The translations under genes and the position numbers were made by a program. Below the pieces are notes generated by a model. That model was given only the letters and a program-made list of their open reading frames with translations. It made no database searches and had not been told where the DNA came from. A stretch of 34,008 bases of DNA from a virus, in the IMG/VR virus record IMGVR_UViG_3300031539_000159; one strand, given 5' to 3'. This document shows positions 1 to 34,008 of the stretch, piece after piece (positions within the stretch are counted from its first letter, which is position 1; each line of letters begins with the position of its first letter).

Positions 1-127
1 GGGGGTTCAAAATGACAATGGGACATTGTAAGCATGGGGAATTCGAACTGACGAAAGGTTGTCCGCAATGTATCGCGGAACGCCAGGCGGCCCAGGAACG
101 GGAAGACGCCGAAGTCAATTCGCCCGA
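1..127. repeat. Terminal overlap: bases 1-127 are identical to 33882-34008, a circular-assembly signature
   Basis: Read directly from the sequence. Both copies start GGGGGTTCAAAATGACAATGG and end TCAATTCGCCCGA. 127 nt equals a commonly used maximal assembler k-mer. Confidence 0.9.
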
Positions 128-1331
128 CAATATCGGGAAGCGAATCAAGGAAGCCGAAGAAGCCGTCGCGGGGAAGGAAGTCCCGCGCCTTATCGTCAAG
201 GTCCAGTACCTTGACAGTTCCGACATTCCAGCGAAGGGGCGGGATTATTCTTACTTCACGGCGGAACCGCTGGCCGTCGGCGATAAGGTCCACGTACCCG
301 TTTATAACCGCGTCCAGAAGGCAATTGTCACAGCGATTGACGTTCCCGAATCCGAAATTGCCGCTTTCAGGGACAAGGTCAAAACCATTCCCGCGGGGTC
401 GAAGCTGACCGACCAGGGACCGACGGCCCAGGCCGCGGAAGAAGGGGCGGCGCGCAATCCTGAAGACGTCGTTCTTTGCGTCCACGGGGAAGACGCGAAC
501 ACTTGCCACGAATGCCAGGTCGAACGTGAACGGGATTGGTTGAATGCGAAGAAGACCGCTGAAGGTTACGGGACCATGTCGGGGTCAATGCCCGAACCGC
601 CCCAGGAAGAATTCAAGGGCGTTCCGTTCGGCGAAGGCGTCGTCGCGACTTCTTCGGAAGAACAAAAGCCGCCCGCCCTGGTCGTTATTGAAACCCAGGT
701 CGGCAAGCCCGCCCCTGAATTGCTTCGACTTTACCTGGAAGCCGCTTCCCTTCTTCGGATTGCGAAAGCGCGGACCATAACCACGAACGAAGACCTGAAG
801 CCCGCGACTGACGACCTGGCAATTATCTTGACTTGTCGAAAGGCCATGTCCGCCAGGAAGACGGAACTATACGGCCCGCTGAAGGCAAAGCTTGACCTGG
901 TCAACCAGTCATTCAACGACATTATGTTTCCCGTCCTGGAAGCCGACCGAATAACCAGGGACCAGGTAAACACCTTTGACAATGAGCAACGCCGCAAGGC
1001 CGCCGAAGCGAAACGTATCGAAGACGAAAAGTTCCGACTGGCCCAGGAAGAAGCAAAGCTGAACGGGACGGGGGAAATAACGGTTCCCCTGGGGACCGCC
1101 CAGGTCCCGCCGCCAGTCCCGAAGAACGTCCGAACGGAAATGGGGACCCTGGGGGGAAGGGACAACTGGAAAGCCCGCGTCGTTGACTTCAAGTTACTGG
1201 ACGACCAATGGAAGATTGCGAACGAATCCCTTCTGAATAGTCACGCGCGGACAACGAAGGGAACGCGCCCGATTCCAGGGGTCGAATTCTACAATGACCG
1301 AAGTGTCACAGTCCGAACCAGGGGGAATTGA
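12..1331 (+). CDS. Hypothetical protein with two Cys/His zinc-ribbon-like clusters and a coiled-coil C-terminal half
   Basis: 439-aa ORF. An AAGGGGG SD lies 7 nt upstream, visible in the duplicate copy at 33880-33892. It carries CKH..CPQC and CVH..CHEC clusters and a Lys/Glu/Ala-rich coiled coil followed by a beta-rich C-terminus. The C-terminal layout loosely recalls Mu Gam-type proteins, but this is unverified. Confidence 0.65.
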   Translation: MTMGHCKHGEFELTKGCPQCIAERQAAQEREDAEVNSPDNIGKRIKEAEEAVAGKEVPRLIVKVQYLDSSDIPAKGRDYSYFTAEPLAVGDKVHVPVYNRVQKAIVTAIDVPESEIAAFRDKVKTIPAGSKLTDQGPTAQAAEEGAARNPEDVVLCVHGEDANTCHECQVERERDWLNAKKTAEGYGTMSGSMPEPPQEEFKGVPFGEGVVATSSEEQKPPALVVIETQVGKPAPELLRLYLEAASLLRIAKARTITTNEDLKPATDDLAIILTCRKAMSARKTELYGPLKAKLDLVNQSFNDIMFPVLEADRITRDQVNTFDNEQRRKAAEAKRIEDEKFRLAQEEAKLNGTGEITVPLGTAQVPPPVPKNVRTEMGTLGGRDNWKARVVDFKLLDDQWKIANESLLNSHARTTKGTRPIPGVEFYNDRSVTVRTRGN

Positions 1332-1332
1332 C

Positions 1333-1470
1333 ATGGCCGACAAGTCGAAAGTCAAAGCGTGGTTGTTCCTTCTTCTGTCAAAAGTTGAAAGCGACGAAAT
1401 CGAAGACGCGAACTTGAAGGAAAGCGGGAAGACAATCACAGTCGAAATAAAATTCAAAAGGGGGAAATGA
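1333..1470 (+). CDS. Small hypothetical protein (45 aa)
   Basis: ATG lies 2 nt after the previous stop. AGGGGGA SD lies 6 nt upstream. It fills the gap before the next gene and falls below the ORF-track length cutoff. Confidence 0.4.
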   Translation: MADKSKVKAWLFLLLSKVESDEIEDANLKESGKTITVEIKFKRGK

Positions 1471-1474
1471 ACCA

Positions 1475-2080
1475 ATGACGAAGAAACTATCCGACCAGGC
1501 AAAGAAGGAAAAGAAGGAAATCAGGAAACAGCAAAAGGCGGCGTCGAAGACCGTCAAAACCGTTACCCAACCGAAGCATGAAGACCCGCCCGCGGAACCC
1601 GTGAATCTTTGCGACGATTGCGCGTACGAATACGGGGAATGTGAAGGCAAGCCGAAGTTCGCTTCCGACCAGGACGAAACCCTGACGGGGCCGGAAGCCG
1701 ACCGCGTTATCGAGTGCCCCGCCTTCGTCAACGTCGCCGCAATGCCGACCGCCCAGGAAGCGGCCGCGCCAGGTCCCGCGGCCGCTGAAGTAAAGGACCA
1801 GGGGGAAGGTCCCGACGCGGCCCATGACGGCGGCGACAAAGGTACCGCCGAAGCTGAAGAAGAACCGGAACCGGAAGTCAAGGTTATCCGGACGGACCTT
1901 CCGAAAGGGCCGGACCCGAAACGATTCCAGGCGGAAGAAGATTTCGGGGCTTGCCAGTCATGCGAAAGGCCCCTGAAGCGGACGGCCTTCAACCGATACC
2001 AGGACGCGGTCCGTTGTACGAACGTCCGTTGTCGGGCTTACCGCGCCGTCGTCAAAACAATATCGTCGGGGGTAAGATAA
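1475..2080 (+). CDS. Hypothetical protein with a Lys-rich N-terminus and Cys-rich motifs
   Basis: 201-aa ORF with AAAGGGGGA upstream. It has a CDDC..C.C cluster and a C-terminal CQSC..C..RC zinc-ribbon-like motif. Confidence 0.65.
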   Translation: MTKKLSDQAKKEKKEIRKQQKAASKTVKTVTQPKHEDPPAEPVNLCDDCAYEYGECEGKPKFASDQDETLTGPEADRVIECPAFVNVAAMPTAQEAAAPGPAAAEVKDQGEGPDAAHDGGDKGTAEAEEEPEPEVKVIRTDLPKGPDPKRFQAEEDFGACQSCERPLKRTAFNRYQDAVRCTNVRCRAYRAVVKTISSGVR

Positions 2081-2081
2081 C

Positions 2082-3250: not shown

Positions 3251-3297
3251 ATCAAAAATGCGGGTCGCTTTTCATTTCCGAAAGGGGGAATAATTCA

Positions 3298-3996
3298 ATG
3301 GCAAAGACTGACAAGTCCACAAAGCCCGAACCCAAAGCCACGAAGACCCCGAAGGCCGAAGCGGTCCAACCGCTGAAGGTCGAAATCACCTTCCCGTCAA
3401 TCGCGGACCTGAAGCAAGCCCTGGCGTTCGACGGCGACGGGAACCTTATAATTGCCGTCCAGTTCAAGGCCCGCGTTGACCAGTACGAAATCTTCCGCCT
3501 GGTCAATCTTCTGAAGCAACCACACGGGACCTTGTACGCCATAATCGGAAGCCCGCAATCGGCAATGGACTTCAAGTTCGACACGAAGAAGGACAAGGTC
3601 GAAATAATCAAAGCGGCAAAGGCCCTTCCCCAGGGGAAGACCCAGGAACCGGCCGCGGAAGCGACCGACCAGGGCGGAACCGTTGTCAAGATTCACGCGG
3701 CGACCTTCAACCATATCCCCGACGAAGAAAAGCCGTTCGGCGTATGTATTGATTTCGTCAACGGGGACGGGGAAATCAGAACGGTTGCTGACCGCGGAAT
3801 GAATCCGACCGAAGCGGTCCTGGCGGGCGTGAAGGCGACCAACGCCTTTCCCGACAACGTGAAGGAACCATTCGAAGTCATGGCCGCGCTGGAATTACTC
3901 GACCCGTCGCCTGAAGCTTACAAACTCATTCGGGTACTCGAAGTCGGGTCATTTGACGAAGAACCTGTTCAGGAAGAAGGCGAAAAGGGGGAATAA
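3298..3996 (+). CDS. Hypothetical protein
   Basis: 232-aa ORF with CGAAAGGGGGAA SD. No recognisable motif. Confidence 0.65.
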   Translation: MAKTDKSTKPEPKATKTPKAEAVQPLKVEITFPSIADLKQALAFDGDGNLIIAVQFKARVDQYEIFRLVNLLKQPHGTLYAIIGSPQSAMDFKFDTKKDKVEIIKAAKALPQGKTQEPAAEATDQGGTVVKIHAATFNHIPDEEKPFGVCIDFVNGDGEIRTVADRGMNPTEAVLAGVKATNAFPDNVKEPFEVMAALELLDPSPEAYKLIRVLEVGSFDEEPVQEEGEKGE

Positions 3997-3999
3997 CGC

Positions 4000-4725
4000 A
4001 TGGGGGCCGAAAGTCGGTTACTATACGACGAACGGCCCCTGGTTGTCATTCCCGAACTGGCCGTCGTTGTCGGGCTTAATAGTGCCATTGCCCTTCAACA
4101 AGTCCATTATTGGGTAAGAATCAACCAGCGGGCCGATAAGAATTTTCGCGAAGGTTACTACTGGACATATAATACTTACGAAGCCTGGCGTGAACAATTC
4201 CCCTTTTGGTCCATTTCAACGGTCAAGCGAATCTTCATGGAACTGGAAGCGGACGGCCTTATCGTGACCGGAAGTTATAACCGACTTCCGATTGACCGGA
4301 CGAAGTGGTACCGCATAAATTACGACCGCCTGGGCGAATGTGTCAAATTGATACAATGGTCGGGTCAGAATGAACCAATGGTGAGCTCAAAATGGCCTCA
4401 TGGTCGGCTCAATTTGACCTCACCATTACCAGAGATTAAAACAGAGATTACAACAGAGAATAGGGTTATAGAGATATGGACCGAAACTTTGGAACAACTG
4501 AAGCTTCAAGTCAGCAAGGCGAATTTCCGAACCTGGTTGAAGGATATTGTCCCGCTTTCATTCGACGGCGAAGCTTTCGTCGTCGGGGCCAAAAGCACCT
4601 TCATTGCCGAATACCTGAACCATAATCAGCGGTCCCTTGTTGAAAAGACCTTGACCGAAGTTGTCGGCCAGGCCGTCATATTCGTATGTCAGGTCGCGCC
4701 GGTCAAGGAAGGGATAAAAACATGA
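4000..4725 (+). CDS. Replication initiator/organizer: N-terminal winged-HTH domain plus C-terminal DnaA-domain-I-like domain
   Basis: The N-terminus (ALQQVHYW...YWTYNTYEAWREQFPFWSISTVKRIFMELEADGLIV) matches the phage replisome-organizer/DnaD-like wHTH pattern. The C-terminus (IWTETLEQLKLQVSKANFRTWLKDIVPLSFDGEAFVVGAKSTFIAEYL...VIFV) matches the DnaA N-terminal domain pattern. Confidence 0.7.
   Translation: MGAESRLLYDERPLVVIPELAVVVGLNSAIALQQVHYWVRINQRADKNFREGYYWTYNTYEAWREQFPFWSISTVKRIFMELEADGLIVTGSYNRLPIDRTKWYRINYDRLGECVKLIQWSGQNEPMVSSKWPHGRLNLTSPLPEIKTEITTENRVIEIWTETLEQLKLQVSKANFRTWLKDIVPLSFDGEAFVVGAKSTFIAEYLNHNQRSLVEKTLTEVVGQAVIFVCQVAPVKEGIKT
4342..4418. repeat. 10-bp inverted repeat GTCAAATTGA / TCAATTTGAC flanking the ori-like segment
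   Basis: Arms at 4342-4351 and 4409-4418 are perfect reverse complements. ATGGTCGG recurs between them (about 4356 and 4400). Confidence 0.6.
4430..4476 (+). repeat. Candidate origin iterons: four CAGAGATTA-like direct repeats with 12-12-15 bp spacing
   Basis: CAGAGATTA at 4430 and 4442, CAGAGAATA at 4454, ATAGAGATA at 4468. They lie in an AT-rich patch within the interdomain linker of the initiator gene. Confidence 0.55.
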
Positions 4726-4916
4726 AACCGAAAGTTATTGTCCGCGGCCGCGACCCGAATTGCGTCCATTATTCGGATATAGTCGGTACTATCGGGACGT
4801 GTCGGGAATGCGGTCAAGTCGTTGATTACCGTCCCTGTCAGGAAGGGAAGAACGAATTACTGGCCGCGAAGGGAAGGAAGGGGGGAAAGGCGTATGCCGC
4901 GATTTATAGCGATTGA
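4722..4916 (+). CDS. Small zinc-ribbon protein (64 aa)
   Basis: ATGA overlap with the previous stop. C..H...CRECG motif. The start is moved inward from ORF-track 4686. Confidence 0.5.
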   Translation: MKPKVIVRGRDPNCVHYSDIVGTIGTCRECGQVVDYRPCQEGKNELLAAKGRKGGKAYAAIYSD

Positions 4917-5394
4917 CCCTTCGACGACGTTCACGGGTTGGGCCGTGTTCCAGGACCAGGGGCTTATCGCCTGGGGGAAGATTGATTCCAGGAAGATTCC
5001 GTACGCCGACCGATTCCCCTTCATTATCGGCGAACTGTCAAGGCGGGCGTCGCAATACGGCGCCCAGGAAGTCGCAATCGAAGACGTCAAATTTGCCTGG
5101 CATTCGAAGAACCGGCTTCGGAATATCGCTGGACTTCAGGTCGTCTTCCGGTCAATCCAGGAATGGGCGAAGGGAATGGACTATCCCCTGGCGCCCTATA
5201 ATCCCGCGACCTGGAAGAACGCCGTCGTCGGGGCTTACGCCGCCCCGAAGGAAATCACGAAGAACAATATCCGGTACCGCTTTCCAGCGGTCCCCGACGA
5301 CTTGACCGACCATGAGTACGACGCAATCGCAATCGGGGTTTACCACGGCGGGCTTCGGTTCCTGGAAGCCCTGGCGGAAGGGGGGACGAATTGA
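4894..5394 (+). CDS. ruvC: RuvC-like Holliday junction resolvase
   Basis: FIAIDPSTTFTGWAV (Asp1), VAIEDV (Glu), KNAVVGAYAAPKE and HEYDAIAIGVYH (His/Asp) match RuvC catalytic motifs. AAGGGGGGAAAGG SD precedes the ATG at 4894. Confidence 0.8.
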   Translation: MPRFIAIDPSTTFTGWAVFQDQGLIAWGKIDSRKIPYADRFPFIIGELSRRASQYGAQEVAIEDVKFAWHSKNRLRNIAGLQVVFRSIQEWAKGMDYPLAPYNPATWKNAVVGAYAAPKEITKNNIRYRFPAVPDDLTDHEYDAIAIGVYHGGLRFLEALAEGGTN

Positions 5395-5600
5395 CAGCAA
5401 TCCTTATCACAGCGACCGCCGAACATGATTGCGAACGATATTCCATTTGTCGGAAGCGTATCCTGGTCGGGGACCGCGCAATCAAGGCGACGGCCCGCCG
5501 TTCAAATTGCGGGGAATCCTATCCCGTGACCGTTTACTATCACGAAGCTTGTTATCAGGAACGCTTCGAATCACGAATGAAAGGGGGGAAGACGAAATGA
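5391..5600 (+). CDS. Small Cys/His-containing hypothetical protein
   Basis: 69 aa with a TTG start in a TTGA overlap with the ruvC stop. Carries C..C...C..HEAC residues. Confidence 0.45.
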   Translation: MTAILITATAEHDCERYSICRKRILVGDRAIKATARRSNCGESYPVTVYYHEACYQERFESRMKGGKTK

Positions 5601-5899
5601 ACATATTCGACGAACTGGACGCGGCCCTGGCCGACGTGAAGAAGGAAGCCGCAAAGGTCCAGAATGAAGTCGCCGCGTTGCGTCGGGAACGTGACGGCGA
5701 AGTGTGGTACTGGCAAGGCGACGGGGGCGACAAACTGGAAAGCCTGACTTGTCCCGTTCTTATCGAAGCCGAAGACCTTCGCGCTATATTGGCAAGGACG
5801 GCCAGGTTCAAAAAAGCTATACAGGAATTGGAAGCTGAACAATGTTACGGGTTCCCGTCACTTTGGGAAGCATTGTCGGAAGGGGATAAAAAACAATGA
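5597..5899 (+). CDS. Hypothetical coiled-coil protein (Ea22-like C-terminal motif, tentative)
   Basis: ATGA overlap and AAGGGGGGAAG SD. The WYWQGDGGDKLESLTCPVLIEAEDLR motif recalls the ead/Ea22-like family, from recollection only. Confidence 0.5.
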   Translation: MNIFDELDAALADVKKEAAKVQNEVAALRRERDGEVWYWQGDGGDKLESLTCPVLIEAEDLRAILARTARFKKAIQELEAEQCYGFPSLWEALSEGDKKQ

Positions 5900-6705
5900 T
5901 ATACGAAACCAAAGGGCGCGCCAGGGAATACTTCGAACTGGCGGCGAATCTATATTCGGGTTGCGAACACGCTTGCCGGTATTGTTACGGGGCGGACGTG
6001 ACCCGAAAGGACCCGAAGGAATTCTTCGGGCGGGCGGTTCCCAGGGAAAACGTCCTGGAAGAACTGGAAAAGGACGCGGCCAGGCTTGCCAGGAAGAACG
6101 AAATCCGCCATATCCTTTTGTCGTTCGTGACCGACCCGTATCAACCCCTGGAAGAAAAGCTGAACATTACCAGGCGGGCAATTCAGATATTACACAGATA
6201 CGACTTGCCAGTCGCAATTCTTACGAAGGGGGGCTTTCGGGCGACCAGGGACTTCGACCTTTTGACTACAAAGGATAGGTTAGATATTTTGAGTACGGAA
6301 GACTTATTTGGCGTTACCTTGACCTTCATGGACCCGCGCCGGTCGCGGACCTGGGAACCAGGGGCGGCCCTTCCGGTTGACCGAATGAAAAGCCTGGACG
6401 ACGCACACGCCCGCGGGATTCCGACCTGGGTATCCCTGGAACCCGTCATTGACCCCGCCGAATCGCTGGCCCTGATTGAAGCGACGGCGAAATTCGTTGA
6501 CGTCTTCAAGGTCGGGACCCTGAATTATCCGAACAAGCTTCCCTGGGATTTACGGGACCAGGTAAGGGGGATTGACTGGAAGAACTTCGCGCGGAACGCC
6601 GTCCTTTTGCTGGACCGCCTGGGGGCGAATTACTATATCAAAAAGGACCTGGCGCGGCATATCGGAAAGCCCGAAGGAATAACAAAAGGAAATGTCCCGA
6701 CGTGA
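5896..6705 (+). CDS. Radical SAM enzyme, DNA-repair-photolyase/SplB (COG1533)-like
   Basis: CEHACRYC (CX3CX2C) lies near the N-terminus after an ELAANLYSG segment. The downstream SFVTDPYQPLE motif is typical of the SPL-like family. ATGA overlap at the start. Confidence 0.7.
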   Translation: MIYETKGRAREYFELAANLYSGCEHACRYCYGADVTRKDPKEFFGRAVPRENVLEELEKDAARLARKNEIRHILLSFVTDPYQPLEEKLNITRRAIQILHRYDLPVAILTKGGFRATRDFDLLTTKDRLDILSTEDLFGVTLTFMDPRRSRTWEPGAALPVDRMKSLDDAHARGIPTWVSLEPVIDPAESLALIEATAKFVDVFKVGTLNYPNKLPWDLRDQVRGIDWKNFARNAVLLLDRLGANYYIKKDLARHIGKPEGITKGNVPT

Positions 6706-7038: not shown

Positions 7039-7151
7039 AGATTTTAGTCGCGTCAATCCTTTTCGCCTTGTGGTCAGGCATTATAATTTATCAGATAATT
7101 GGCGCCAGGCGCGCAAGGCGTCGAATGAATCGGGAAAGGGGGACGAAGTGA
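7035..7151 (+). CDS. 38-aa single-pass membrane peptide
   Basis: GTG start in a GTGA overlap. ILVASILFALWSGIIIYQIIG hydrophobic helix followed by an RRARRR tail. Confidence 0.4.
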   Translation: MKILVASILFALWSGIIIYQIIGARRARRRMNRERGTK

Positions 7152-7669
7152 ATATCGGCGGAAGCATAAGTGGGGCAATCTTCGGCGACGGCCGCCGATT
7201 CCGTTATGCGCTTTGGCGAAGGTGGAAGAATTCCCCGAAGAACCTGGACGCGCTTCTTTTCATTGGCTTGAACCCGTCCACGGCCAACGGGACGAAGGAC
7301 GACCCGACCGTCGTCCGCATGATAAACTTCGCGAAGTCCTGGGGATTCGGCGGCCTATTCGTCGGGAACCTTTTCAGTATCGTTTCGGCCGACCCCGCCG
7401 TCCTTCTGACGGACACGTCGAAGGAATTATACGGCGGTCCGAACGACGCGGCAATCAAGCAAATGCGGAACCTTTGTTCCCTGGTCGTCGTCGGTTGGGG
7501 GGAATTCGGAAAGCGTGTCGGGTACCGGCCCGCGGCGGTCCTGGACCTGGTCGGGGAACCCGTTTATTGTATCAAGTTGAACCGTTCGGGCGAACCGTCA
7601 CACCCGTTATATTTACCAGGTAATTCGAAGTTGATTCGATATTACCGAAAGGGGGCTTGCCATGAATAA
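7148..7669 (+). CDS. DUF1643-like protein
   Basis: RFRYALWRRW...LLFIGLNPSTANGTKDDPTVVRMINFAKSWGFGGLFVGNLF matches my recollection of the DUF1643 signature. GTG start with AAAGGGGGA SD and a GTGA overlap. Confidence 0.6.
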   Translation: MNIGGSISGAIFGDGRRFRYALWRRWKNSPKNLDALLFIGLNPSTANGTKDDPTVVRMINFAKSWGFGGLFVGNLFSIVSADPAVLLTDTSKELYGGPNDAAIKQMRNLCSLVVVGWGEFGKRVGYRPAAVLDLVGEPVYCIKLNRSGEPSHPLYLPGNSKLIRYYRKGACHE

Positions 7670-7868: not shown

Positions 7869-8233
7869 ACACAGATAAAACGGCGGCCATGCCGACCGAT
7901 AACCAACCAGCGGAACAACCCGCCATGAATCGGAAGCAACGCCGACAAATGGCGAACCTGGCGAAGAAGTACCGGCCGCGGGGGAAGTGCCCCTTCCCTG
8001 GTTGCGGGCATACCTTCTTCCAGGAAGACGGACAACCGAACGCGTGTCCTGACCATAGGAAGCTAATCGCCGACGTGTTATACATAGTGAATCATACAAA
8101 GACGGGGGAACCTGAAGCCGTCGGCGGCAAAGACGGGAAGCCGGTAATCTATGTCCCGAAGCCTGGCGTATCAATGCGAACGCTGGAAATTGAATTGGCG
8201 GCCGAAGCCGCGAAAGGGGGTAATAAACCATGA
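7865..8233 (+). CDS. Hypothetical protein with a CPFPGCGH...CPDH zinc-finger-like motif
   Basis: 122-aa ORF with ATGA overlap and GGGGGAAGC SD. Confidence 0.55.
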   Translation: MNTDKTAAMPTDNQPAEQPAMNRKQRRQMANLAKKYRPRGKCPFPGCGHTFFQEDGQPNACPDHRKLIADVLYIVNHTKTGEPEAVGGKDGKPVIYVPKPGVSMRTLEIELAAEAAKGGNKP

Positions 8234-9210
8234 CGGACTTAAAATTCAAACTATCATTCGACGAACGCGGACGGGTAATATATCAACCAGGTGACATTGT
8301 CGGCGTCCGCGGGGGCAAAGGACCGATACCCTGGTTATCTTACCATGCCATTGTCCCGCAAACTCCATTGTTCCATTTCCTTCTTATCGGCGACCGTATC
8401 GGAACGGAAGATTACGTTATCCTGGAAAGTATCGGGAAGGGTACCGCCTTCGGGCGGCTTTCCTGGTATAGGAATCGCGAACACGTTGTCTTCCGCGTGA
8501 ACCACGAAAACGCCGAAGATATGGGAAACCTGGCCGTCAACCTGGCGTCGAAGTTCGGCCGCCGCCGGTACGACTGGAAGCTATATGTCCGAATCTTCGC
8601 CTGGGCCCTGGGTTACTGGTTGAAGGAAATCCTGAAGCTTCACTTCCCGCCGCGGCCAGTTTACCCGACGCAAATCCCATATAAGACCGACCAGGACTTC
8701 ATTTGTATTGAACTGGTCTTCGAAGCCTGGAAGGAAGTCGGCTTCAGAATTCGGGAACACGGACACGCGCCGGTTCCGGCCGAAGTTATCCTGGCCGTGG
8801 ACCGCGGGGACCTGGAAGTCATAGACAACCACGACGGGAATCCCGCGAACTGGCGGAATCATAAGTCCCCGTTATACACGGCGGCCAGGCAAATCGCCGA
8901 AGACCATAAACCGAAAGCGGGCGGCGATATTATCGGACGCCAGGGCGGGCAAAAGCGGAATCGGGCCCATATCTACCGACAACCGTACGGGTACCCGATT
9001 CGCCTTTGCGATTGGGCCGCCGTTGACGTGGAAACAATCGAACGAATCGGCGAAGCCCAGGGACTATGCGGACCGGCGGAATTGCGCGTCCTAGCCGCCG
9101 TCCTGGATTGGGCGGAAGCCACGAAGGGCGCCGTTATCTGTAAGCATTGTCGGGCCCTGGCCAAAGGCGAACGCGGACCGCTTATGGGCGGACCTGGGGG
9201 GTACGCATGA
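8230..9210 (+). CDS. YiiX/YaeF-like permuted papain-fold (NlpC/P60 superfamily) hydrolase with a C-terminal extension
   Basis: GDIVGVRG...HFLLIG...VILESIGKG...RRRYDW...FICIELVFEAWKEVGF resembles the permuted NlpC/P60 order, with the Cys in the last motif. Identified by eye only. Confidence 0.4.
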   Translation: MTDLKFKLSFDERGRVIYQPGDIVGVRGGKGPIPWLSYHAIVPQTPLFHFLLIGDRIGTEDYVILESIGKGTAFGRLSWYRNREHVVFRVNHENAEDMGNLAVNLASKFGRRRYDWKLYVRIFAWALGYWLKEILKLHFPPRPVYPTQIPYKTDQDFICIELVFEAWKEVGFRIREHGHAPVPAEVILAVDRGDLEVIDNHDGNPANWRNHKSPLYTAARQIAEDHKPKAGGDIIGRQGGQKRNRAHIYRQPYGYPIRLCDWAAVDVETIERIGEAQGLCGPAELRVLAAVLDWAEATKGAVICKHCRALAKGERGPLMGGPGGYA

Positions 9211-9884
9211 ACCAACCGGCGAAGAAGTCCCATAAAAAGAAGGTCAAGCCCTGGAACACATATCGGGCCGAAGAACGCCAGGAATACTTCTTCCTGATAT
9301 ACGAACAAATGGGCGTTGGCCGAACCCTGAAGCGATTGTGGGGCCTTGTCCGCGGGGTCGGGGTATCAATATCCCTGAAGACCCTGGAACGGTATTCGTC
9401 TTCATTCAACTGGCAAGTCCGGATACTCGAAAGGGCGGCCAGGCATGAAGCGGCCGACTTCGTGGAAATCCAGGACCAGGTTGACCAAATGACCCAGGAC
9501 CATATTCGAGTATTCCAGGATATAGGGGCCCTGGTCACGGCCGGAATCAAGCATTGGAAGAAGAAGATTGACGACCGTGTCGCCGCGGGCGCGGGGGACG
9601 GCCTGGAAATGGACCTGACCGACATTGGCCGCCTGGCGGACCTGTACCAAAAGGGCGAACGCCTGGCGCGGGGACTTGCCACGTCGAAGGCGGAAGTAAT
9701 TATCGAAGTCCTTCCGCCCCTGGTCAAGGATATATTCGCCGTCTTCCTGGCCGTGAACGTTATCACGAACGACCCGCCGGAACTGGTCCGGAAGCGGCAA
9801 GCCGAATTCATTACCCGCGCCGACGCGGTCATGGTCCTGTATTACGGCGGCCAAAAGCAAATCGGCGAAGGGGGCGGGAATTGA
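9207..9884 (+). CDS. Candidate terminase small subunit (HTH + coiled coil)
   Basis: Basic N-terminus, an HTH-like segment (GRTLKRLWGLV...ISLKTLERYSSSFNWQVR), then helical oligomerisation-like regions. It lies upstream of TerL but is separated from it by 6 genes. ATGA overlap at the start. Confidence 0.4.
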   Translation: MNQPAKKSHKKKVKPWNTYRAEERQEYFFLIYEQMGVGRTLKRLWGLVRGVGVSISLKTLERYSSSFNWQVRILERAARHEAADFVEIQDQVDQMTQDHIRVFQDIGALVTAGIKHWKKKIDDRVAAGAGDGLEMDLTDIGRLADLYQKGERLARGLATSKAEVIIEVLPPLVKDIFAVFLAVNVITNDPPELVRKRQAEFITRADAVMVLYYGGQKQIGEGGGN

Positions 9885-10135
9885 AACAGGAAGGGGACAA
9901 AGTAAATAAACGACCCAAACGATACAAGGAAGTCTTCAAAATGGAAGTTATTTTGGCGAAGGGGCGGGACGGTTCCCCTTTCTTATATCATCTTCAAGGT
10001 TATCAGCGGGGGAAGTGGATTGGGGGAAACTTGAATATCACTTCAAGGCGCGAACTCAACAAGCTTATCCGTCAATGGTTCAACGATATAGAAACGGAAA
10101 TAATGGGAACGGGATTTTGGAAGGGGGTTGAATGA
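9881..10135 (+). CDS. Hypothetical protein (84 aa) starting MKQEG
   Basis: TTG start in a TTGA overlap with GAAGGGGGC SD. An alternative ATG is at 9941. Confidence 0.45.
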   Translation: MKQEGDKVNKRPKRYKEVFKMEVILAKGRDGSPFLYHLQGYQRGKWIGGNLNITSRRELNKLIRQWFNDIETEIMGTGFWKGVE

Positions 10136-11062: not shown

Positions 11063-11426
11063 TTGCTGGCAAGCTTGCGTCGCATCACTTCTGGAAATAC
11101 CCCTGGAAGAAGCGTTCGACTGTCGCCCTTATTGGGACCAGGGCGACGGGAAATGGTTCGACGATTTCAACGCCTGGTTGAAGGATTATGGCCTGGCCTG
11201 TATCGCCTTCGACCATACGGAAGAAAAGCCCCTTCCAGCGTCGCCTTTCCTGGGTTATCACCTGGGGGAATTCAAAAGCGCAACCTTGAAGAATGGGGAA
11301 ACCCATATATGCGTAATCCACAACGGGGACGTGGTCCATGACCCGAACCCACGGGCCGAAAGGGTTGGCGACGCATTGGGGTTATATCTATTCGTACCGC
11401 TGGACCCCGTGGAGTGGTCGAAGTGA
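11001..11426 (+). CDS. Papain-like cysteine peptidase (C39-like arrangement)
   Basis: GNCWQACVASLL is a candidate catalytic Cys after Asn/Gln. ETHICVIHNGDVVHDPNP is a candidate His/Asp. Size 141 aa. Confidence 0.45.
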   Translation: MKKIYQTTFGGVNAPDEEKGNCWQACVASLLEIPLEEAFDCRPYWDQGDGKWFDDFNAWLKDYGLACIAFDHTEEKPLPASPFLGYHLGEFKSATLKNGETHICVIHNGDVVHDPNPRAERVGDALGLYLFVPLDPVEWSK

Positions 11427-12328
11427 AAGTATTATTGCTTGACGTTGACGGAAAGCTTCCGAATATTGCCCTTCACAAGTTGGCGATATGGCACGAAGGC
11501 CAGGGCGACGAAGTGACCTGGAATATGCCGCTTTTCCTGAACCAGGCCGACAAGGTTTACATTTCAACAATACTGACGAAGTCGCGCCCGAAGGTTGAAA
11601 ACCTGGTTGGATTACGGCCCGACGCCGTCGTCGGCGGAACGGGTACCTGGGGCTGGTTCATTGACCCGCCGCCAAATTTCCTTCCTTGTCTTCCCGCGGA
11701 AGTTGAACTGGTCAAGGCCCGAATCAATTACGGGTTCACAACGCGGGGTTGTATTCGCCATTGTCCGTTTTGCCTGGTCCCGCTGGTTGAAGGAAATATC
11801 CGCGCGGTCGGGGATATATTCGACGTTTGGGACGGGAAGTCGAAGACCTTGACGTTATTCGATAATAATATCCTGGCCCTTCCGGAACACTTCGAAAGGA
11901 TTGTCACCCAACTGGTCGCTGAAGAACTGGTCGTTGACTTCAACCAGGGCCTTGATATTCGCTTGGTTACTTCTGGAATCGCCCGAATGTTATCAAGATT
12001 GAAAACAAAGGATATTCGATTCGCTTTTGATAGCCTATCGTTGGAAAGCGTTTTCCGTCGTAAAATAGACATATTGAGAAGTAACGGATTCCCGAATAAA
12101 TACTTCTTCGTTTATGTCCTGGTTGGCTTTGATACTACATTCGAAGAAGATATGTACCGCCTGGACGTATTGAAGGAATTAAAATGTCGGCCTTATGTAA
12201 TGCGCCATGAAAGAACGCCGAACGAACGAAGGTATAATGAAATGGCTTCATGGGCGAATCAACTATGGACTTTCGCGGAGTATAACTTTAGTGAGTATTG
12301 GAAATTCAGAACGGGGACAAACTTATGA
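11423..12328 (+). CDS. Radical SAM enzyme with an N-terminal Rossmann-like (B12-binding-like) domain
   Basis: TTRGCIRHCPFC (CX3CX2C) follows a KVLLLDVDG...ALHKLA flavodoxin-like N-terminus. GTG at 11423 has GGAG 8 nt upstream and a GTGA overlap. An alternative GTG is at 11414. Confidence 0.7.
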   Translation: MKVLLLDVDGKLPNIALHKLAIWHEGQGDEVTWNMPLFLNQADKVYISTILTKSRPKVENLVGLRPDAVVGGTGTWGWFIDPPPNFLPCLPAEVELVKARINYGFTTRGCIRHCPFCLVPLVEGNIRAVGDIFDVWDGKSKTLTLFDNNILALPEHFERIVTQLVAEELVVDFNQGLDIRLVTSGIARMLSRLKTKDIRFAFDSLSLESVFRRKIDILRSNGFPNKYFFVYVLVGFDTTFEEDMYRLDVLKELKCRPYVMRHERTPNERRYNEMASWANQLWTFAEYNFSEYWKFRTGTNL

Positions 12329-13806
12329 TAACGAAGACGCCGTACCTTTTCAAAGACGCCGCGACCGCGGTCGAAATCCGGCGGGCCGAAGACGTGGCCG
12401 ACTGGACCAGGACGCCCGCGACCCTGGGGAATCACTTGACGAACGGGTCGTACGAACGGATTCGGCATATTGACTTCCTGGCCGACATAATCGCCCAATG
12501 CGCGGAACGGGCCGTCTTCCTGGTAATCAACGTTCCGCCCCAACACGGCAAGTCCGAACTGGTTTCGCATTATACGCCCGTTTGGTTCCTGAAGAAGTTT
12601 CCCTGGAAGAAGGTCGGGCTGGCGTCGTACGAAATGGGATTCGCTTCAGAATGGGGCGGCAAGGCGAAGGACACGATTACCGAACACACCGACGAACTGA
12701 ATATCCAGCTTCGCCAGGACACGAAGGCGAAGGGCCGCTGGAACCTTCGCGGATACGGCGGCGGAATGACCGTTGCCGGTATCGGCGGCCCCTTCACGGG
12801 TCGGGGCTTCGACTTGATTGTCGTTGACGACCCTATTAAAAACGACGCTGAAGCCCTTTCGGAAGTGTACCGGCGCCGGAACTGGAACTGGTATCGTTCC
12901 GTCGTCCGGCCCAGGCTTCAACCTGGCGGGTCCATTATCGTCATTATGACCCGCTGGCATGAACAAGACCTGGCGGGGGCCTTGTTGGGGAACCCGCCGG
13001 AAGACGAAGAAGAACTGCTTATTGAAGAAGACGTCGAACCGGACCCCTGGGAATGTATCAACCTTCCGGCCCTGGCCGAAGAAAACGACGTCCTGGGGCG
13101 GAAACCAGGGGAAGCCCTTTGGCCCACGCGGTACGACGAAACGGCCCTGAAGAAGCTTCGGGTCGCCGCCGGTCCCTTTTGGTGGACCGCGCAATACCGC
13201 GGGAAGCCGCAACCTGAAGGCGGCGGTATCATCAAAACGGCCTGGTTCAAGTCGTACGAAGACGAAGACCTTCCGCCGACCTTTTCCCGCGTCGTCCAGA
13301 TATGGGATACGGCACACAAGGAAAAGCAACGACATGACCGTTCGGCGTGTCTTACCATTGGCCAGGCGAACAACCCGCGCCGGTATTACCTTCTGGACCT
13401 GTACGTTGCCAGGCTTACCTTTCCGGACCTGAATCGGGCGGCCGAAGCGCAATATGACAAATGGGAACCGGACCGCGTCGTGATTGAAGATAAGTCTTCC
13501 GGAATATCCCTTATCCAGCAACTTCGGCGGGATACGAAGGTCCCGATTCGGGCGGTCAAGGCCATTGACGACAAGGTCACGCGGGCCCATACCGTAACCG
13601 GCGTCATGGAAGCGGGCCAGGTCCTTATCCCGCGTCATGCTTCCTGGTTGGCCGATTTCCTGAAGGAAGTCGGGGACTTCCCGACCGGCGCGCATGACGA
13701 TATTGTTGACGTCCTGGTCCACGGCTTGCGCTTCCTGAAGCCGCGATTGAAGGGGCACCGCCAGGGGGTCGAAGTGGAAGCGAAGAAGTCCCGCTGGCGT
13801 GACTGA
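12325..13806 (+). CDS. terL: Terminase large subunit
   Basis: The ATPase shows PPQHGKSE (Walker A-like), LIVVDDP (Walker B) and MTRWHEQDL. The C-terminal nuclease shows IWDTA, VVIEDKSSG and HDDIVD. ATGA overlap at the start. Confidence 0.9.
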   Translation: MITKTPYLFKDAATAVEIRRAEDVADWTRTPATLGNHLTNGSYERIRHIDFLADIIAQCAERAVFLVINVPPQHGKSELVSHYTPVWFLKKFPWKKVGLASYEMGFASEWGGKAKDTITEHTDELNIQLRQDTKAKGRWNLRGYGGGMTVAGIGGPFTGRGFDLIVVDDPIKNDAEALSEVYRRRNWNWYRSVVRPRLQPGGSIIVIMTRWHEQDLAGALLGNPPEDEEELLIEEDVEPDPWECINLPALAEENDVLGRKPGEALWPTRYDETALKKLRVAAGPFWWTAQYRGKPQPEGGGIIKTAWFKSYEDEDLPPTFSRVVQIWDTAHKEKQRHDRSACLTIGQANNPRRYYLLDLYVARLTFPDLNRAAEAQYDKWEPDRVVIEDKSSGISLIQQLRRDTKVPIRAVKAIDDKVTRAHTVTGVMEAGQVLIPRHASWLADFLKEVGDFPTGAHDDIVDVLVHGLRFLKPRLKGHRQGVEVEAKKSRWRD

Positions 13807-14093: not shown

Positions 14094-15503
14094 ATGGTTT
14101 CAAATAGAGGTTATACACCGCCGGACCCGAATTCCAAACGAAGTCAACGCCGCCGAAAAGAAGGGCGGCTTTCGCGTAATTATCAGAATGAAAGCGGCAA
14201 TATCCGAACCGTGGTCGGCGTCACAGGATTGAAGCATATCGGCGGCCGCATTCGTGAAGAATACCTGAACGCAATCAAAAACTGGTCAACCGAAGTCAAG
14301 CTGTACCTGGAAATGAGGGACGACCCGATATGCGGGGCCCTGGTTGACGGAATCAAACTTCCCCTTCAGGCCGCTTCCTTTGACGTTGAAGCCGCCCCTG
14401 GCGGGTCGCCCAACGACGAAGCCGCGGCCGAATGGTTATGGGAAGTATTGAATAACATGGACGGGCAAACGTGGATTTCCCATGTCGAAGACGCCCTGGA
14501 ATGCCTGGACTTCGGGTTCGCCCTGGGGGAAATGGTCCTGGACAAAAGGGACGACGGCCGCCTTTGGTTGAAGAACATTGACCCGCGCGGCCAGGAAAGC
14601 TTGAACCGTTGGGAATACGACAAGGAAGAACGGGACAAGCTGATTGCCTTCGTTCAGAATGACCCGAATTCCGGCGCGACGTTCACGATTCCGCTTGCGA
14701 AATGCTTACATTTCACATACCGCGGCCGGAAGGGGAATCCCCAGGGACATTCGATATTGCGGGCCCTATATCGCCCGTACAAGTTCGCGCGGAACCTGGA
14801 AGACCTGGAAGGAATCGGTATCGAACGCGACGTCGGCGGTATGCCGTACGCGAAGCTGACCGACGACAACTTCGAAACCGCGGACCTGGACGACTTGAAG
14901 AAGGCATTGAAGGGTCTTCGGAAGGACGAAGAAGTTTACCTTATCGCCCCGCCTGGCGTGGACATTCAAGCGTACGGCGGCGGGTCGAAGATATACGACG
15001 TCAACGTGGTCATTGACCGCTGGCATAAAATAACGCTAATGCGCTTCTTCGCGCAATTCCTTATCCTGGGAATGGGGAACGTCGGGACCCAGGCCCTTGT
15101 CAAAGGTTCCCAGGACTTCTTTTCGCTGGTCCTGGAAGCGGTCCAGCGGTACCTTCTGGAAACCTGGAACCTTCAACTGGTCCCGTACATCTTCAACTTC
15201 AACCAATGGTCCGGCATATCGGGGTACCCGAAAATCGTTTGGGAAAAGCCAGGTCGGGTTGACTTCAACGCCCTTATTACCGCGCTGAATACGGCGGCGG
15301 GCGCGAAGCTATTCACGCCGACCGACATTGACGAAGACCATATCCGAAGCCTTGCGGACCTTCCCGAACTTCCGGAAGAAGAACGGGGGGCCCCGCGTGA
15401 CGTTGAACAACCGCCAATGGGCGGCCTTTTCGACCTTCCGAAGAAGGTTGAAGACATGGGGGCCCGTATCGAAAAGGAACTGGCCCTGGCGGGGAAGAAA
15501 TGA
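14094..15503 (+). CDS. Portal protein (Mu gp29/DUF935-like)
   Basis: 469 aa, between terL and the MuF-like gene. YLEMRDDPICGALVDGIKLPL...WLWEVL is a portal-type N-terminal pattern. Confidence 0.8.
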   Translation: MVSNRGYTPPDPNSKRSQRRRKEGRLSRNYQNESGNIRTVVGVTGLKHIGGRIREEYLNAIKNWSTEVKLYLEMRDDPICGALVDGIKLPLQAASFDVEAAPGGSPNDEAAAEWLWEVLNNMDGQTWISHVEDALECLDFGFALGEMVLDKRDDGRLWLKNIDPRGQESLNRWEYDKEERDKLIAFVQNDPNSGATFTIPLAKCLHFTYRGRKGNPQGHSILRALYRPYKFARNLEDLEGIGIERDVGGMPYAKLTDDNFETADLDDLKKALKGLRKDEEVYLIAPPGVDIQAYGGGSKIYDVNVVIDRWHKITLMRFFAQFLILGMGNVGTQALVKGSQDFFSLVLEAVQRYLLETWNLQLVPYIFNFNQWSGISGYPKIVWEKPGRVDFNALITALNTAAGAKLFTPTDIDEDHIRSLADLPELPEEERGAPRDVEQPPMGGLFDLPKKVEDMGARIEKELALAGKK

Positions 15504-19387: not shown

Positions 19388-20356
19388 ATGAAACGAATGT
19401 TCGGAAACCCGACCATTGGCGACGTACACGTTGACCAGGCGTTATCTGAAATCGCCATTGCGTATCGGAATAAATCCTTTATCGCGGACCAGGTCTTCCC
19501 GCTGGTCGAAGTGGAAAAGCAAAGCGACAAATACCACGTTTGGGACAAGGGTTCCTGGTTGACCAACCAGGTTGAAACCCGAACCCCTGGGGACACCTAT
19601 CCGGAAGGTCGCATTAAGCTTTCCCAGGACGAATTCTTCTGCGACATCTATCACCTGGGTTACGCGATACCCTGGGAACTCCAAAAGAACCAGGACGCCG
19701 CCGTTCAACTGGAAGAAACGGGGGCCGAATGGTTGGCCCATCAATTCATGCTGAACCGCGAAATCCAAATCGCCGCGGCAATCTTCACTTCGACGGGGCC
19801 AGTATGGGACACGAACCCGACCGTCGGGGCCGACTTTATCGCCTGGGACGATTACGACAACTCCAACCCGCCGGAAGATATTGACACTTATCGCGACACG
19901 GTCCTTCAGAATACCGGCGTGGAACCGAATACCCTGGTTATCGGGAAACAGGTTTACAGCAAGCTTCGCCGACACCCGTTGCTTCTGGATATGTATAAAT
20001 ACACGGGTCGCGGCATTCTGACCGAAGCTGAAGTCGCCGCCGCGCTGGAAATTGAAAAGCTGGTTGTCGGGAAATGCGTCCAGCGAACGTCCATTGAAGG
20101 GACGGCCGTCGCGGTCCAGGCTTTCGTTTGGGGGAAGGACGCGCTTATGCTTTACGTCCCCGAACGGCCCGCATTGCGGGAACCGGCCGCCGGTTATACC
20201 TTCGCCTGGAAGATTGACGATTCCGGCTTGACCGTGAACATTGTCCCGACCGTCCAGGAAAACCGCGACCGCGATTTCCTGAAAGGGAAACACGCGTACG
20301 ACTTCAAGGTCACGGGGGCGGACCTGGGCGTTTTCTTTGAAAGCGTCATAAGCTAA
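19388..20356 (+). CDS. Major capsid protein (lambda gpE-like family, HK97 fold)
   Basis: 322 aa at the expected position. The N-terminal LSEIAIAYRNKSFIADQVFPLVEVEKQSDKYHVWDKGSW pattern is typical of capsid protein E-like MCPs. A hairpin lies downstream. Confidence 0.8.
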   Translation: MKRMFGNPTIGDVHVDQALSEIAIAYRNKSFIADQVFPLVEVEKQSDKYHVWDKGSWLTNQVETRTPGDTYPEGRIKLSQDEFFCDIYHLGYAIPWELQKNQDAAVQLEETGAEWLAHQFMLNREIQIAAAIFTSTGPVWDTNPTVGADFIAWDDYDNSNPPEDIDTYRDTVLQNTGVEPNTLVIGKQVYSKLRRHPLLLDMYKYTGRGILTEAEVAAALEIEKLVVGKCVQRTSIEGTAVAVQAFVWGKDALMLYVPERPALREPAAGYTFAWKIDDSGLTVNIVPTVQENRDRDFLKGKHAYDFKVTGADLGVFFESVIS

Positions 20357-31727: not shown

Positions 31728-31799
31728 CGTCGTGGTCCGAAAGGTCGGGTCCCGACGGGGCGGAAGAAGCCCGAAATAAACGAAAGGGGGCGAAAGGAC

Positions 31800-32003: not shown

Positions 32004-32030
32004 CGAAATAAAAACCGAAAGGGGGAACAA

Positions 32031-33289: not shown

Positions 33290-33456
33290 AAACAATCTTG
33301 AAAATCGAATGTATGTATTGCCGAAAGGCAATGGGTGAAGTGGACGGCAAGGGGACCGAAGGAATCAGTCATTCCATTTGCCCGACGTGCTGGTCCGAAT
33401 GGTTCCCTGGTATCCCTTACCCCGAAAATAAAACCGAAAGGAAGGTATCAAAATGA
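33286..33456 (+). CDS. Small zinc-ribbon protein (56 aa; CMYC...CPTC)
   Basis: ATGA overlap with the Topo VI-A-like gene. Confidence 0.5.
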   Translation: MKTILKIECMYCRKAMGEVDGKGTEGISHSICPTCWSEWFPGIPYPENKTERKVSK

Positions 33457-33809
33457 AACCGACTTATAGTGAACTTCAAGATTACCTGGCGCGTCAATTC
33501 TGTATCGGTTGTCCTGACCAGGGGCCCGACGGCGCCGGAAGTGGGGAAGGTTGCGAAGATTGTCCGGTAATGGACGTTCCGACTGAACCTTATCCCGACA
33601 AAGAACCAGCGGACAAGCCCCTGGGCCTGGACGCTTTGGCGATTGCGGGGCTTGAAACGCCCCACGAAATCATTATCGCGGTCGCCAACCTTTCCAGGGA
33701 AGGCGAACAAATTATGCTTCGGAAGCTTGCCTGGGCCCTGGCAGAAACGGGCGAACTCGAAAACCGCCGAATGCTGAAGGAAGCATTGACCGCCGCGTCC
33801 CTGGTATGA
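33453..33809 (+). CDS. Hypothetical protein with a CIGC...CEDC motif
   Basis: 118 aa with ATGA overlap. AACCGAAAGGAAGG SD. Confidence 0.55.
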   Translation: MKPTYSELQDYLARQFCIGCPDQGPDGAGSGEGCEDCPVMDVPTEPYPDKEPADKPLGLDALAIAGLETPHEIIIAVANLSREGEQIMLRKLAWALAETGELENRRMLKEALTAASLV

Positions 33810-33810
33810 C

Positions 33811-33840
33811 TTGACAAGGGCAATACAAAGGCGTTACAAT
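33811..33840 (+). promoter_or_regulatory. Sigma70-type promoter P3 (TTGACA-18 nt-TACAAT)
   Basis: TTGACA at 33811-33816 and TACAAT at 33835-33840. It drives gene 12..1331 across the circular junction. Confidence 0.65.
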
Positions 33841-33865
33841 GGGGGCCTGGGGATACCAGGTCCCC
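33841..33865 (+). promoter_or_regulatory. Hairpin at the predicted 5' end of the P3 transcript (or operator)
   Basis: GGGGGCCTGG-GGATA-CCAGGTCCCC forms a 10-bp stem with one G-U pair, immediately after the -10. Confidence 0.45.
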
Positions 33866-33881
33866 AAATAACCGAAAGGAA

Positions 33882-34008
33882 GGGGGTTCAAAATGACAAT
33901 GGGACATTGTAAGCATGGGGAATTCGAACTGACGAAAGGTTGTCCGCAATGTATCGCGGAACGCCAGGCGGCCCAGGAACGGGAAGACGCCGAAGTCAAT
34001 TCGCCCGA
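33882..34008. repeat. Second copy of the 127-nt terminal overlap
   Basis: Identical to 1-127. Confidence 0.9.
33893..34008 (+). CDS. Duplicate 5' fragment of gene 12..1331 (assembly overlap, not a separate gene)
   Basis: Same sequence as 12-127. Confidence 0.85.
   Translation, partial: MTMGHCKHGEFELTKGCPQCIAERQAAQEREDAEVNSP

Follow-up and report, generated by a model that had tools for sequence, protein, structure and literature searches.

Avoidance of restriction sites by phages was reportedly recognised by Sharp in 1986, and the genome of Staphylococcus phage K, for example, is reported to have no GATC. The usual view is that one or a few host sites are lost in this way. In a survey by Rusinov et al. 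(2018; PMC6286503), near-complete elimination of sites was seen in about one tenth of phage genomes and concerned almost exclusively orthodox Type II sites; avoidance was found mainly in non-temperate double-stranded (ds) DNA phages, and avoidance of Type I, Type IIG and Type III sites was rare or absent. Here we describe the genome of an uncultured tailed phage, IMG/VR record IMGVR_UViG_3300031539_000159, the whole 34,008-nt stretch of which was analysed and is called the window below. It resembles the site-avoiding virulent dsDNA phages in that short palindromic Type II sites have been fully lost by synonymous change, no protecting methyltransferase is recognisable, and protection would be passive. 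It differs from those documented in that at least 20 independent motifs are eliminated, 31% of testable REBASE specificities show a depletion exceeding 10-fold and one hexamer in four never occurs; moreover, asymmetric 4-mers and a trinucleotide are included and the ribosome-binding sites have been recoded. Taken as a whole, the pattern represents an extreme form of a known anti-restriction strategy, and it makes the phage a promising natural system in which to follow the arms race with restriction enzymes.

Words missing from the genome

Neither GATC nor TGCA occurs in the window on either strand, the circular junction included, as an earlier note made from the sequence letters had claimed. 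Base composition predicts 127 copies of each and a maximal-order Markov model 71.5 of GATC and 20.5 of TGCA. In 1000 synonymous-codon permutations that keep all of the proteins and the genome's own, already skewed, codon usage, 99.8 +/- 7.9 copies of GATC are expected (shuffle minimum 74, z = -12.7) and 49.1 +/- 5.2 of TGCA (shuffle minimum 31, z = -9.4). The two words are missing from all three reading frames. The note's smaller remarks also held good: the other 14 four-base palindromes are all present, CTAG is rare (14 copies), CTC-CAG is found at 18361 and GATG occurs once.

The genome is complete, because positions 1-127 (+ strand) are repeated exactly at 33882-34008, a 127-bp terminal overlap that indicates a circular assembly of about 33.9 kb; word absence can thus be claimed genome-wide. 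An identical portal protein is encoded on contigs of five independent assemblies from the Joint Genome Institute and ENA, and since the same phage has been assembled five times independently, the absence of the words is not an assembly artefact. The source samples are JGI 3300031565, 3300031669 and 3300031578 and ENA ERZ27256827 and ERZ27256847.

Loss of GATC and TGCA would by itself be ordinary. The note regarded two eliminated sites as unusually extreme, a judgement that does not stand, as roughly one phage genome in ten shows such a loss (PMC6286503), and the two words are in fact just two of the 20 or more independent motifs. The most striking features, namely the depletion of GAG/CTC, the GGGGG ribosome-binding sites and the missing quarter of hexamers, had been overlooked. 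About 20 motifs beyond GATC and TGCA are present in 0-1 copies where 20-131 are expected. Counts for individual words under the codon-preserving null are as follows:

CCSGG: 0 observed, 131 expected
CATCG: 0 observed, 64 expected
CAGAC: 0 observed, 47 expected
CCWWGG: 0 observed, 45 expected
CATCC: 0 observed, 45 expected
GTMKAC: 0 observed, 37.5 expected
CASTG: 0 observed, 37.5 expected
CYCGRG: 0 observed, 29 expected
GTCGAC: 0 observed, 20 expected
GCWGC: 1 observed, 59 expected
CTNAG: 1 observed, 49 expected
GCAG+CTGC: 12 observed, 206 expected
GATG+CATC: 14 observed, 178 expected

CTCT is absent too, TTAA is reduced to 18 copies (97 expected, codon null), and TAG/CTA, GTG/CAC and GCA/TGC stand at 0.16-0.37 of expectation. 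The words that have been fully eliminated are mostly palindromes, and the asymmetric words GATG, GCAG, GGTG, GTAG and CAGAC have been mostly removed. Eight or more copies are expected for 457 REBASE specificities, of which 93 fall short by a factor of more than 10; in the first 17 kb of the window the share is 31% of testable specificities. With all GAG/CTC-containing sites excluded the share in the window is still 21%, against 0-4% in controls, and for palindromes alone it is 22%, against 0-8%. Seventy-nine pentamers and 964 of the 4096 hexamers never occur; about 130 hexamers are missing in shuffles.

The word CCWGG is in excess, with 435 copies against 151 expected (2.9-fold, codon shuffle), and it lies 4-6.6-fold above base composition across the core loci of the clade described below. 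When synonymous swaps were simulated with 26 hard-depleted words forbidden, CCWGG reached 259-279 copies from a baseline of about 150. The excess is thus not purely a by-product of forbidden words, although about half of it is a by-product of the restricted vocabulary.

The surviving copies of depleted asymmetric words are often restricted to a single strand, with a significant skew (p<0.05) in 12 of the 29 pairs compared (CTGCC 0 and GGCAG 8; CCACC 0 and GGTGG 8; GATG 1 and CATC 13; CTCT 0 and AGAG 9). This recalls the escape of phage T7 from the Type III enzyme EcoP15I, all sites for which are reportedly in one orientation, but the likeness is statistical only. It does not extend to GAG/CTC, which are unskewed (41 versus 32), and with all of the genes on one strand the skew may be a coding effect that the shuffle does not catch.

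GAG occurs 41 times against 736 expected and CTC 32 times against 442, a depletion of about 16-fold for the two together that leaves 73 copies. It was seen in every reading frame and outside genes:

In frame: 23 GAG codons against 712 GAA; CTC 12 of 793 Leu codons
Frame +1: GAG 5 observed, 87 expected; CTC 6 observed, 46 expected
Frame +2: GAG 11 observed, 68 expected; CTC 11 observed, 115 expected
Non-coding: GAG 2 observed, 68 expected; CTC 3 observed, 25 expected

A codon or tRNA cause is ruled out by the equal depletion of out-of-frame and non-coding GAG/CTC. The effect operates at the level of DNA, and because the word and its complement are equally lost while the genes lie on one strand only, it would be duplex DNA that is recognised rather than RNA. 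For every one of the 16 NGAGN contexts the reduction is 5-fold or more in the window and 7-fold or more in pooled clade sequence. At the next level, the window has no copy of 210 of the 256 NNGAGNN contexts, for which 997 sites are expected; GGAGG, CGAGG and GGAGC stand at 0.01-0.02 of expectation, and TCGAGTA is present in 8 copies against 3.5 expected and at 0.87 of expectation in 235 kb of pooled clade sequence. The unevenness among heptamers and the 73 surviving sites favour, without settling the matter, many summed GAG-containing recognition sequences over a pure 3-bp recogniser.

The same depletion reaches the signals for translation initiation. In the -20 to -4 region, 27 of 42 genes have GGGGG (typically AAGGGGG) as their Shine-Dalgarno sequence and only 1 has GGAG or GAGG. 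Two examples are:

3284-3288, + strand: rewritten Shine-Dalgarno sequence AAAGGGGGAA, upstream of the gene at 3298
1460-1464, in the window: rewritten Shine-Dalgarno sequence

GGGGG ribosome-binding sites are found clade-wide, whereas distant relatives use GGAG/GAGG. Foreign DNA within one relative (L058, below) uses the canonical TAGGAGG and GAGGTGA, so the anti-Shine-Dalgarno sequence of the host is probably ordinary, and GGGGG, through G-U wobble pairing, is probably an adaptation of the phage.

The residual GAG/CTC copies form only one cluster:

4383-4477, + strand: sole cluster of residual GAG/CTC, inside the gene for the DnaD-like initiator

It consists of four CTCA at 11-bp spacing followed by four (C/T)AGAGAT at about 12-bp spacing. 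This iteron-like array is probably a replication origin retained by functional constraint.

Avoided words and terminase-flanking enzymes among the relatives

The large terminase (TerL) retrieved 52 loci from IMG/VR, to which homologues from ENA, NCBI and Logan assemblies were added (individual loci are given below by L numbers). Members of the clade, with TerL identity of at least 57%, are mostly contigs of about 30-40 kb, and share the depletion of GAG/CTC, CCSGG, GCWGC, CTNAG and CYCGRG and the excess of CCWGG. To measure the breadth of avoidance, the testable REBASE sites with more than 10-fold depletion were expressed as a percentage over the first 17 kb of every genome. This percentage fades with phylogenetic distance:

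Core clade, TerL identity 57-100%: 27-36% of sites
L062, TerL identity 62%: 17% of sites
L063, TerL identity 55%: 15% of sites
L064, TerL identity 52%: 7.5% of sites
L065, TerL identity 48%: 1% of sites
Eight more distant relatives, TerL identity 45% or less: 0-3% of sites

The avoided set varies among these related phages in an all-or-none manner and by synonymous differences, in genomes of near-identical gene order. GGWCC is close to 0 in nine relatives and 2-2.5-fold enriched in the window, L003, L008, L011, L012, L014 and L025. GANTC is close to 0 in L008, L014 and L025 only, CCGG is 0 in L012, L014, L058 and L025, L014 and L027 have no GTAC, and CATG is close to 0 in L025. Only L028, L018 and L029 have GTMKAC, at nearly the expected frequency. 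TGCA is missing completely from just the window and L012 and stands at 0.04 of expectation in L003 and at 0.08-0.5 in other relatives; GATC is 0 in most members of the clade and at 0.2-0.7 in L017, L028 and L023. Judged from these distributions, the two losses in the earlier note would have different histories: that of GATC appears ancient and clade-wide with exceptions, and the complete loss of TGCA appears recent, in the window's own sub-lineage and confined to its closest relatives.

In two members with 57% TerL identity, L026 and L027, GATC is 4-fold enriched (63 versus 16 expected and 203 versus 49 expected, about 1 site per 65 bp), yet the depletion of GAG/CTC, CCSGG and GCWGC is kept; inspection of 13 kb of sequence revealed no gene of the Dam type. 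L063 reverses the pattern of the window, with CCWGG at 0.00, TCGA at 0.00, CGCG at 0.02 and CCSGG at 1.48. The synonymous route is visible at positions where the amino acid is conserved: of 23 GATC sites in L023, 16 read GACC in the window, and 21 of 36 GAG words are replaced by GAA. Among relatives in general, GATC is likewise mostly matched by GACC in the window and GAG by GAA.

The genes to which functions or families could be given in the window are listed here:

4000-4725, + strand: DnaD-like replication initiator with DnaA_N domain
4822-5394, + strand: RuvC
5896-6705, + strand: radical-SAM protein, PA0069/Rv2578c-like, not a methyltransferase
7070-7669, + strand: DUF1643 protein
11414-12328, + strand: second radical-SAM protein, phrog_9298, directly upstream of the terminase
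12298-13806, + strand: large terminase (TerL), the clade-defining marker
14094-15503, + strand: portal protein, Mu / P23-45-like
15500-16327: head-associated protein, 275 residues
17095-18909, + strand: head protease
19388-20356, + strand: major capsid protein
+ strand: tail protein, 1264 residues

The terminase, portal and capsid genes mark a tailed dsDNA phage. In all there are about 48 genes, every one on the + strand, covering 93% of the window, and searches of Pfam, PHROGs and NCBIfam left many of the proteins without an assigned function. No integrase-family domain was detected among the proteins of the window, many of whose open reading frames (ORFs) are unannotated, and for that reason the phage is probably virulent. 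It has no close cultured relatives, the best portal match among 50,697 phage records showing 33% identity.

The earlier note had recognised no DNA methyltransferase gene, and Pfam, PHROGs, NCBIfam, catalytic-motif scans and tblastn with the methyltransferases of relatives likewise found none in the window. The two radical-SAM proteins and the DUF1643 protein have no assigned functions, and searches of PDB sequences with them gave no matches; some other DNA modification may be involved.

Sister phages do carry methyltransferases. L023 (85% TerL identity, 48% G+C) encodes an N6/N4 methyltransferase between its terminase and portal genes (11470-12708) and also a C5-methyltransferase-like protein, and not one REBASE site is depleted more than 10-fold in its genome. 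L023 still has mostly GGGGG ribosome-binding sites, which we infer to be a relic of an avoiding ancestor. L063 (NCBI GCA_041890195.1) encodes two N6/N4 methyltransferases (870-2594 and 7903-9906), one of them directly upstream of the terminase, and C5-methyltransferase-like ORFs are found in L017, L058 and L062. In L028 a PAPS-reductase-domain protein (3447-4637) is directly upstream of the terminase. The enzyme that flanks the terminase differs by lineage: a radical-SAM protein in the window, a PAPS-reductase-domain protein in L028 and an N6/N4 methyltransferase in L023 and L063 (in L063 that at 7903-9906). This suggests that the packaging module is a hot spot into which DNA-modification or anti-restriction cargo is swapped. 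In having an N6/N4 enzyme by the terminase, the relaxed L023 and L063, with its different avoidance set, resemble phages that practise active anti-restriction with orphan methyltransferases in the packaging module; the window differs from these, its directly upstream gene encoding a radical-SAM protein of unassigned function.

Other differences in gene content were seen among the relatives. The L027 homologue (4957-6222) of the window's 15500-16327 protein has an extra 2H-phosphoesterase / LigT / Acb1-like domain and may, on that domain assignment, represent a function directed against the cyclic oligonucleotide-based antiphage signalling system (CBASS) that has been joined to a virion protein. 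Some clade members have inteins or LAGLIDADG homing-endonuclease domains, which are present in the TerL homologues P0133, P0152 and P0200 (about 825 versus 493 residues) and in the gene after the portal in L062 (13243-14853). Several relatives have a gene for tRNA-Met downstream of the portal region, namely L008 (14337-14410), L011 (14355-14428), L014 (14441-14514) and L058 (11000-11073); this gene is absent from L023, L007, L028 and the window, in which no tRNA genes were found.

Foreign DNA in a relative and the probable host

The close matches that had been binned in metagenome-assembled genomes (MAGs) were assigned to Dehalococcoidales (47 kb) and Omnitrophota (40 kb), and both are entire phage-sized contigs. 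Because the two assignments conflict and both contigs are of phage size, binning was rejected as a guide to the host. The Dehalococcoidales contig, DAOULS010000041.1, is L058. Its positions 1-2650 have normal word content and canonical GGAGG ribosome-binding sites within an otherwise depleted phage genome, and they contain the following features:

302-784 of L058: PEP-utilising-domain ORF
871-1563 of L058: C5-methyltransferase-like ORF
1619-2515 of L058, - strand: IS1595 transposase

This first 2.65 kb is a recent insertion, an IS1595 element with cargo, and not a flank of host DNA: the module sits inside the phage genome with the DUF1643 gene directly after it, and L058 was accordingly rejected as a prophage with adjoining host sequence. 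A second transposase (P0008, 90% identical) is encoded on the same contig, so that the module may be a composite transposon. Named relatives of the L058 transposase are mostly from Chloroflexota or Dehalococcoidales, with one from Omnitrophota.

Many related IS1595 transposases lie on contigs of 28-47 kb, which may be further phage genomes. The one that was checked, L067 (contig MGMO01000074.1 of the Chloroflexi RBG_13_48_17 MAG), looks phage-like and has a copy of IS1595, but it does not obviously belong to this clade; its counts are 2 versus 37 expected for GATC and 15 versus 42 for GGCC, and GAG is normal.

A Chloroflexi chromosome segment, L066, carries a 64%-identical copy of the insertion sequence and has the same G+C content as the phage (56%). 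Its observed and expected counts are 667 and 695 for GAG, 74 and 75 for TGCA, 66 and 71 for CCSGG and 44 and 75 for GATC, a mild depletion in the last case; its ribosome-binding sites are canonical and CCWGG is enriched 2.2-fold. Word content in this segment is normal, so the phage pattern was not copied from such a genome.

Two other routes to the host were rejected. A related prophage (P0201/L061, on a 5.46-Mb contig, 45% TerL identity) has no depletion and 38% G+C and lies outside the phenomenon. The Chloroflexi-named enzymes Cau* and Hgi* give a mixed match to the avoided set: CCSGG and GTCGAC are absent, GGWCC is absent from nine relatives and present in the window, and no depletion is seen for GGYRCC, GRCGYC or GRGCYC. 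Weak evidence, from the Dehalococcoidales bin and the affiliations of the transposases, points with low confidence to a Chloroflexota bacterium as the probable host.

Explanations for the avoidance

We consider it likely that the pattern reflects passive evasion of host restriction-modification by site loss, in a phage without a recognisable methyltransferase whose lineage was under a changing restriction repertoire. Passive escape by site elimination was also the mechanism offered by the earlier note, and it is the one best supported, although the note's framing around two sites was too narrow. According to this explanation the restriction enzymes met by the lineage would have been many and would have changed over time. 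Synonymous substitutions would have erased all copies of many 4-6-bp palindromes (GATC, TGCA, CCSGG, CCWWGG, CASTG, GTMKAC, CYCGRG and GTCGAC), nearly all copies of GCWGC, CTNAG, CTAG and TTAA and, in the same way, most copies of the asymmetric words, leaving a genome without recognition sequences that would passively evade host restriction-modification. The depletion of GAG/CTC would most likely be the summed effect of many GAG-containing recognition sequences, and this loss would have gone deep enough for GGGGG to replace GGAGG as the ribosome-binding site.

Several observations fit selection by strain-variable restriction-modification: the complete loss of many palindromes of Type II kind, the relaxation of avoidance in L023, its fading with distance, the synonymous route of change and the window without a recognisable methyltransferase. 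The breadth of depletion relative to the distant controls, its action at the DNA level and the normal word content of both the DNA newly gained by L058 and the Chloroflexi segment also speak for it. An all-or-none synonymous mosaic among relatives is what such variable pressure would be expected to produce, and the avoided words agree in general with known REBASE specificities. Restriction enzymes would thus be the selective agent.

Some points weigh against this explanation. The avoided words include several asymmetric 4-mers and a trinucleotide, and as phages seldom or never avoid sites of Type I, IIG and III enzymes (PMC6286503), part of the pattern lies beyond the documented range. A GAG-specific nuclease would still cut at the 73 GAG/CTC copies that are left, and L058 tolerates a foreign module with 82 copies. 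The 2.9-fold enrichment of CCWGG is only about half explained by the 26 forbidden words, and the loss of avoidance in L023 could have come from a switch of host instead of from its methyltransferases.

The strongest of the alternatives concerns the GAG/CTC component only and proposes an older, separate pressure from a single host factor that recognises GAG/CTC or some degenerate core of very few bases. This could be a nickase or nuclease that cuts frequently, a system of the phosphorothioate type, or a half-site shared by the shuffling specificity subunits of Type I enzymes; the last would account for a strong yet incomplete depletion being sufficient. In its favour, the depletion of GAG/CTC is the deepest shared trait of the clade (ratio 0.02-0.18 down to 57% TerL identity and 0.24 at 52%), all 16 NGAGN contexts are affected and the GGGGG ribosome-binding sites are clade-wide. 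Such a factor is harder to reconcile with the very uneven depletion of heptamers (TCGAGTA versus GGAGG and CGAGG), with the 73 sites that are left, with the normal GAG content of the L058 module and with a GAG depletion that broadly rises with the number of other avoided motifs across relatives; furthermore, avoidance of Type I sites is not general in phages (PMC6286503). We therefore regard it as unlikely that a conserved defence of the host lineage reading a short GAG/CTC core, whether a nuclease or nickase or a shared half-site, forced the clade to recode about 95% of its GAG/CTC and to change GGAGG to GGGGG. Were it true, this would be the first defence system to reshape the translation-initiation signals of a phage and the first avoidance at the trinucleotide level in a dsDNA phage.

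It is considerably less probable that GAG/CTC (and possibly TAG or CAC) are protospacer-adjacent motifs (PAMs) of type I CRISPR-Cas systems in the hosts. A 2-3-bp duplex motif read in either orientation suits the symmetric loss of GAG and CTC, and loss of 2-4-bp motifs tied to host defence has been reported in phages as a weak effect (Kupczok and Bollback 2014, PMC4246573). In the window the depletion is about 16-fold and context-dependent and is accompanied by the loss of many palindromes. One protospacer suffices for immunity, so a 16-fold cut that leaves 73 PAMs protects little; a 3-bp motif should not be so sensitive to its heptamer context, and the palindromes and the on/off mosaic are left unexplained.

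Mimicry of host oligonucleotide usage, or a context-specific mutator, would account for two features: the most enriched trinucleotides, GAA, TTC, CTT and AAG, are the C-to-T / G-to-A products of GAG/CTC, and CCWGG is in excess (2.2-fold) in the sampled Chloroflexi chromosome too. Mimicry is at odds with the normal GAG, GATC, TGCA and CCSGG of both the host-derived DNA in L058 and the Chloroflexi segment of equal G+C content, a mutator with the undepleted TC dinucleotide, and mutational bias of any kind cannot yield all-or-none differences in single palindromes between close relatives; we think this most improbable.

Selection on RNA or translation, through motifs of MazF-type RNases, rare codons or avoidance of internal Shine-Dalgarno-like sequences, is already largely refuted, because the depletion is independent of strand and reading frame. 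The genes are all on one strand, fewer GGAG/GAGG inside genes could lessen ribosome pausing, and RNA phages avoid the MazF site ACA, a likeness in that a trinucleotide is avoided; the ACA case (PMC12151602), however, is strand-specific on RNA, whereas in the window both complements are depleted in duplex DNA and in any frame. On the transcribed strand GAG (41) and its reverse complement CTC (32) are both depleted, non-coding DNA is affected, the fully lost words are mostly palindromes and the genuine ribosome-binding sites have lost GGAGG too, which is the opposite of avoiding only internal Shine-Dalgarno sequences.

Chloroviruses attack host DNA with frequent cutters, including TG^CA and ^GATC enzymes, and among the numerous window proteins without assigned function there could be nucleases of this kind whose own sites the phage has removed, but we give this scarcely any credence: nucleases for more than 20 specificities cannot fit in a 34-kb genome, a RuvC-like resolvase is the only nuclease detected in the window, and no obvious gain or loss of a nuclease gene tracks the mosaic among relatives of near-identical gene order.

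Passive evasion of restriction thus being the preferred explanation, the genome exceeds the documented range in how many motifs are lost, in the presence of asymmetric 4-mers among them, in having one trinucleotide almost abolished and in its recoded ribosome-binding sites. In the literature we found no precedent for the clade, for multi-motif avoidance at such a scale or for Shine-Dalgarno-linked trinucleotide depletion; coverage was incomplete and this is no proof of novelty.

Our findings show a natural phage near the limit of site avoidance, in a clade whose TerL proteins are nevertheless 57-100% identical. Its relatives constitute a natural experiment: the single-palindrome switches and the methyltransferase-bearing sisters allow the rates and costs of site loss to be derived from metagenomes, and the trade-off between passive and active anti-restriction becomes measurable within one clade. 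The genome also shows the reach of synonymous recoding, which is relevant to the design of restriction-proof DNA. The earlier note's suggestion that the missing words give a signal for host prediction holds in a different form: they signal not one pair of enzymes but a population endowed with a great many restriction specificities. From the avoided set one can predict the restriction repertoire and the methylome of that uncultured host population, which probably belongs to the Chloroflexota.

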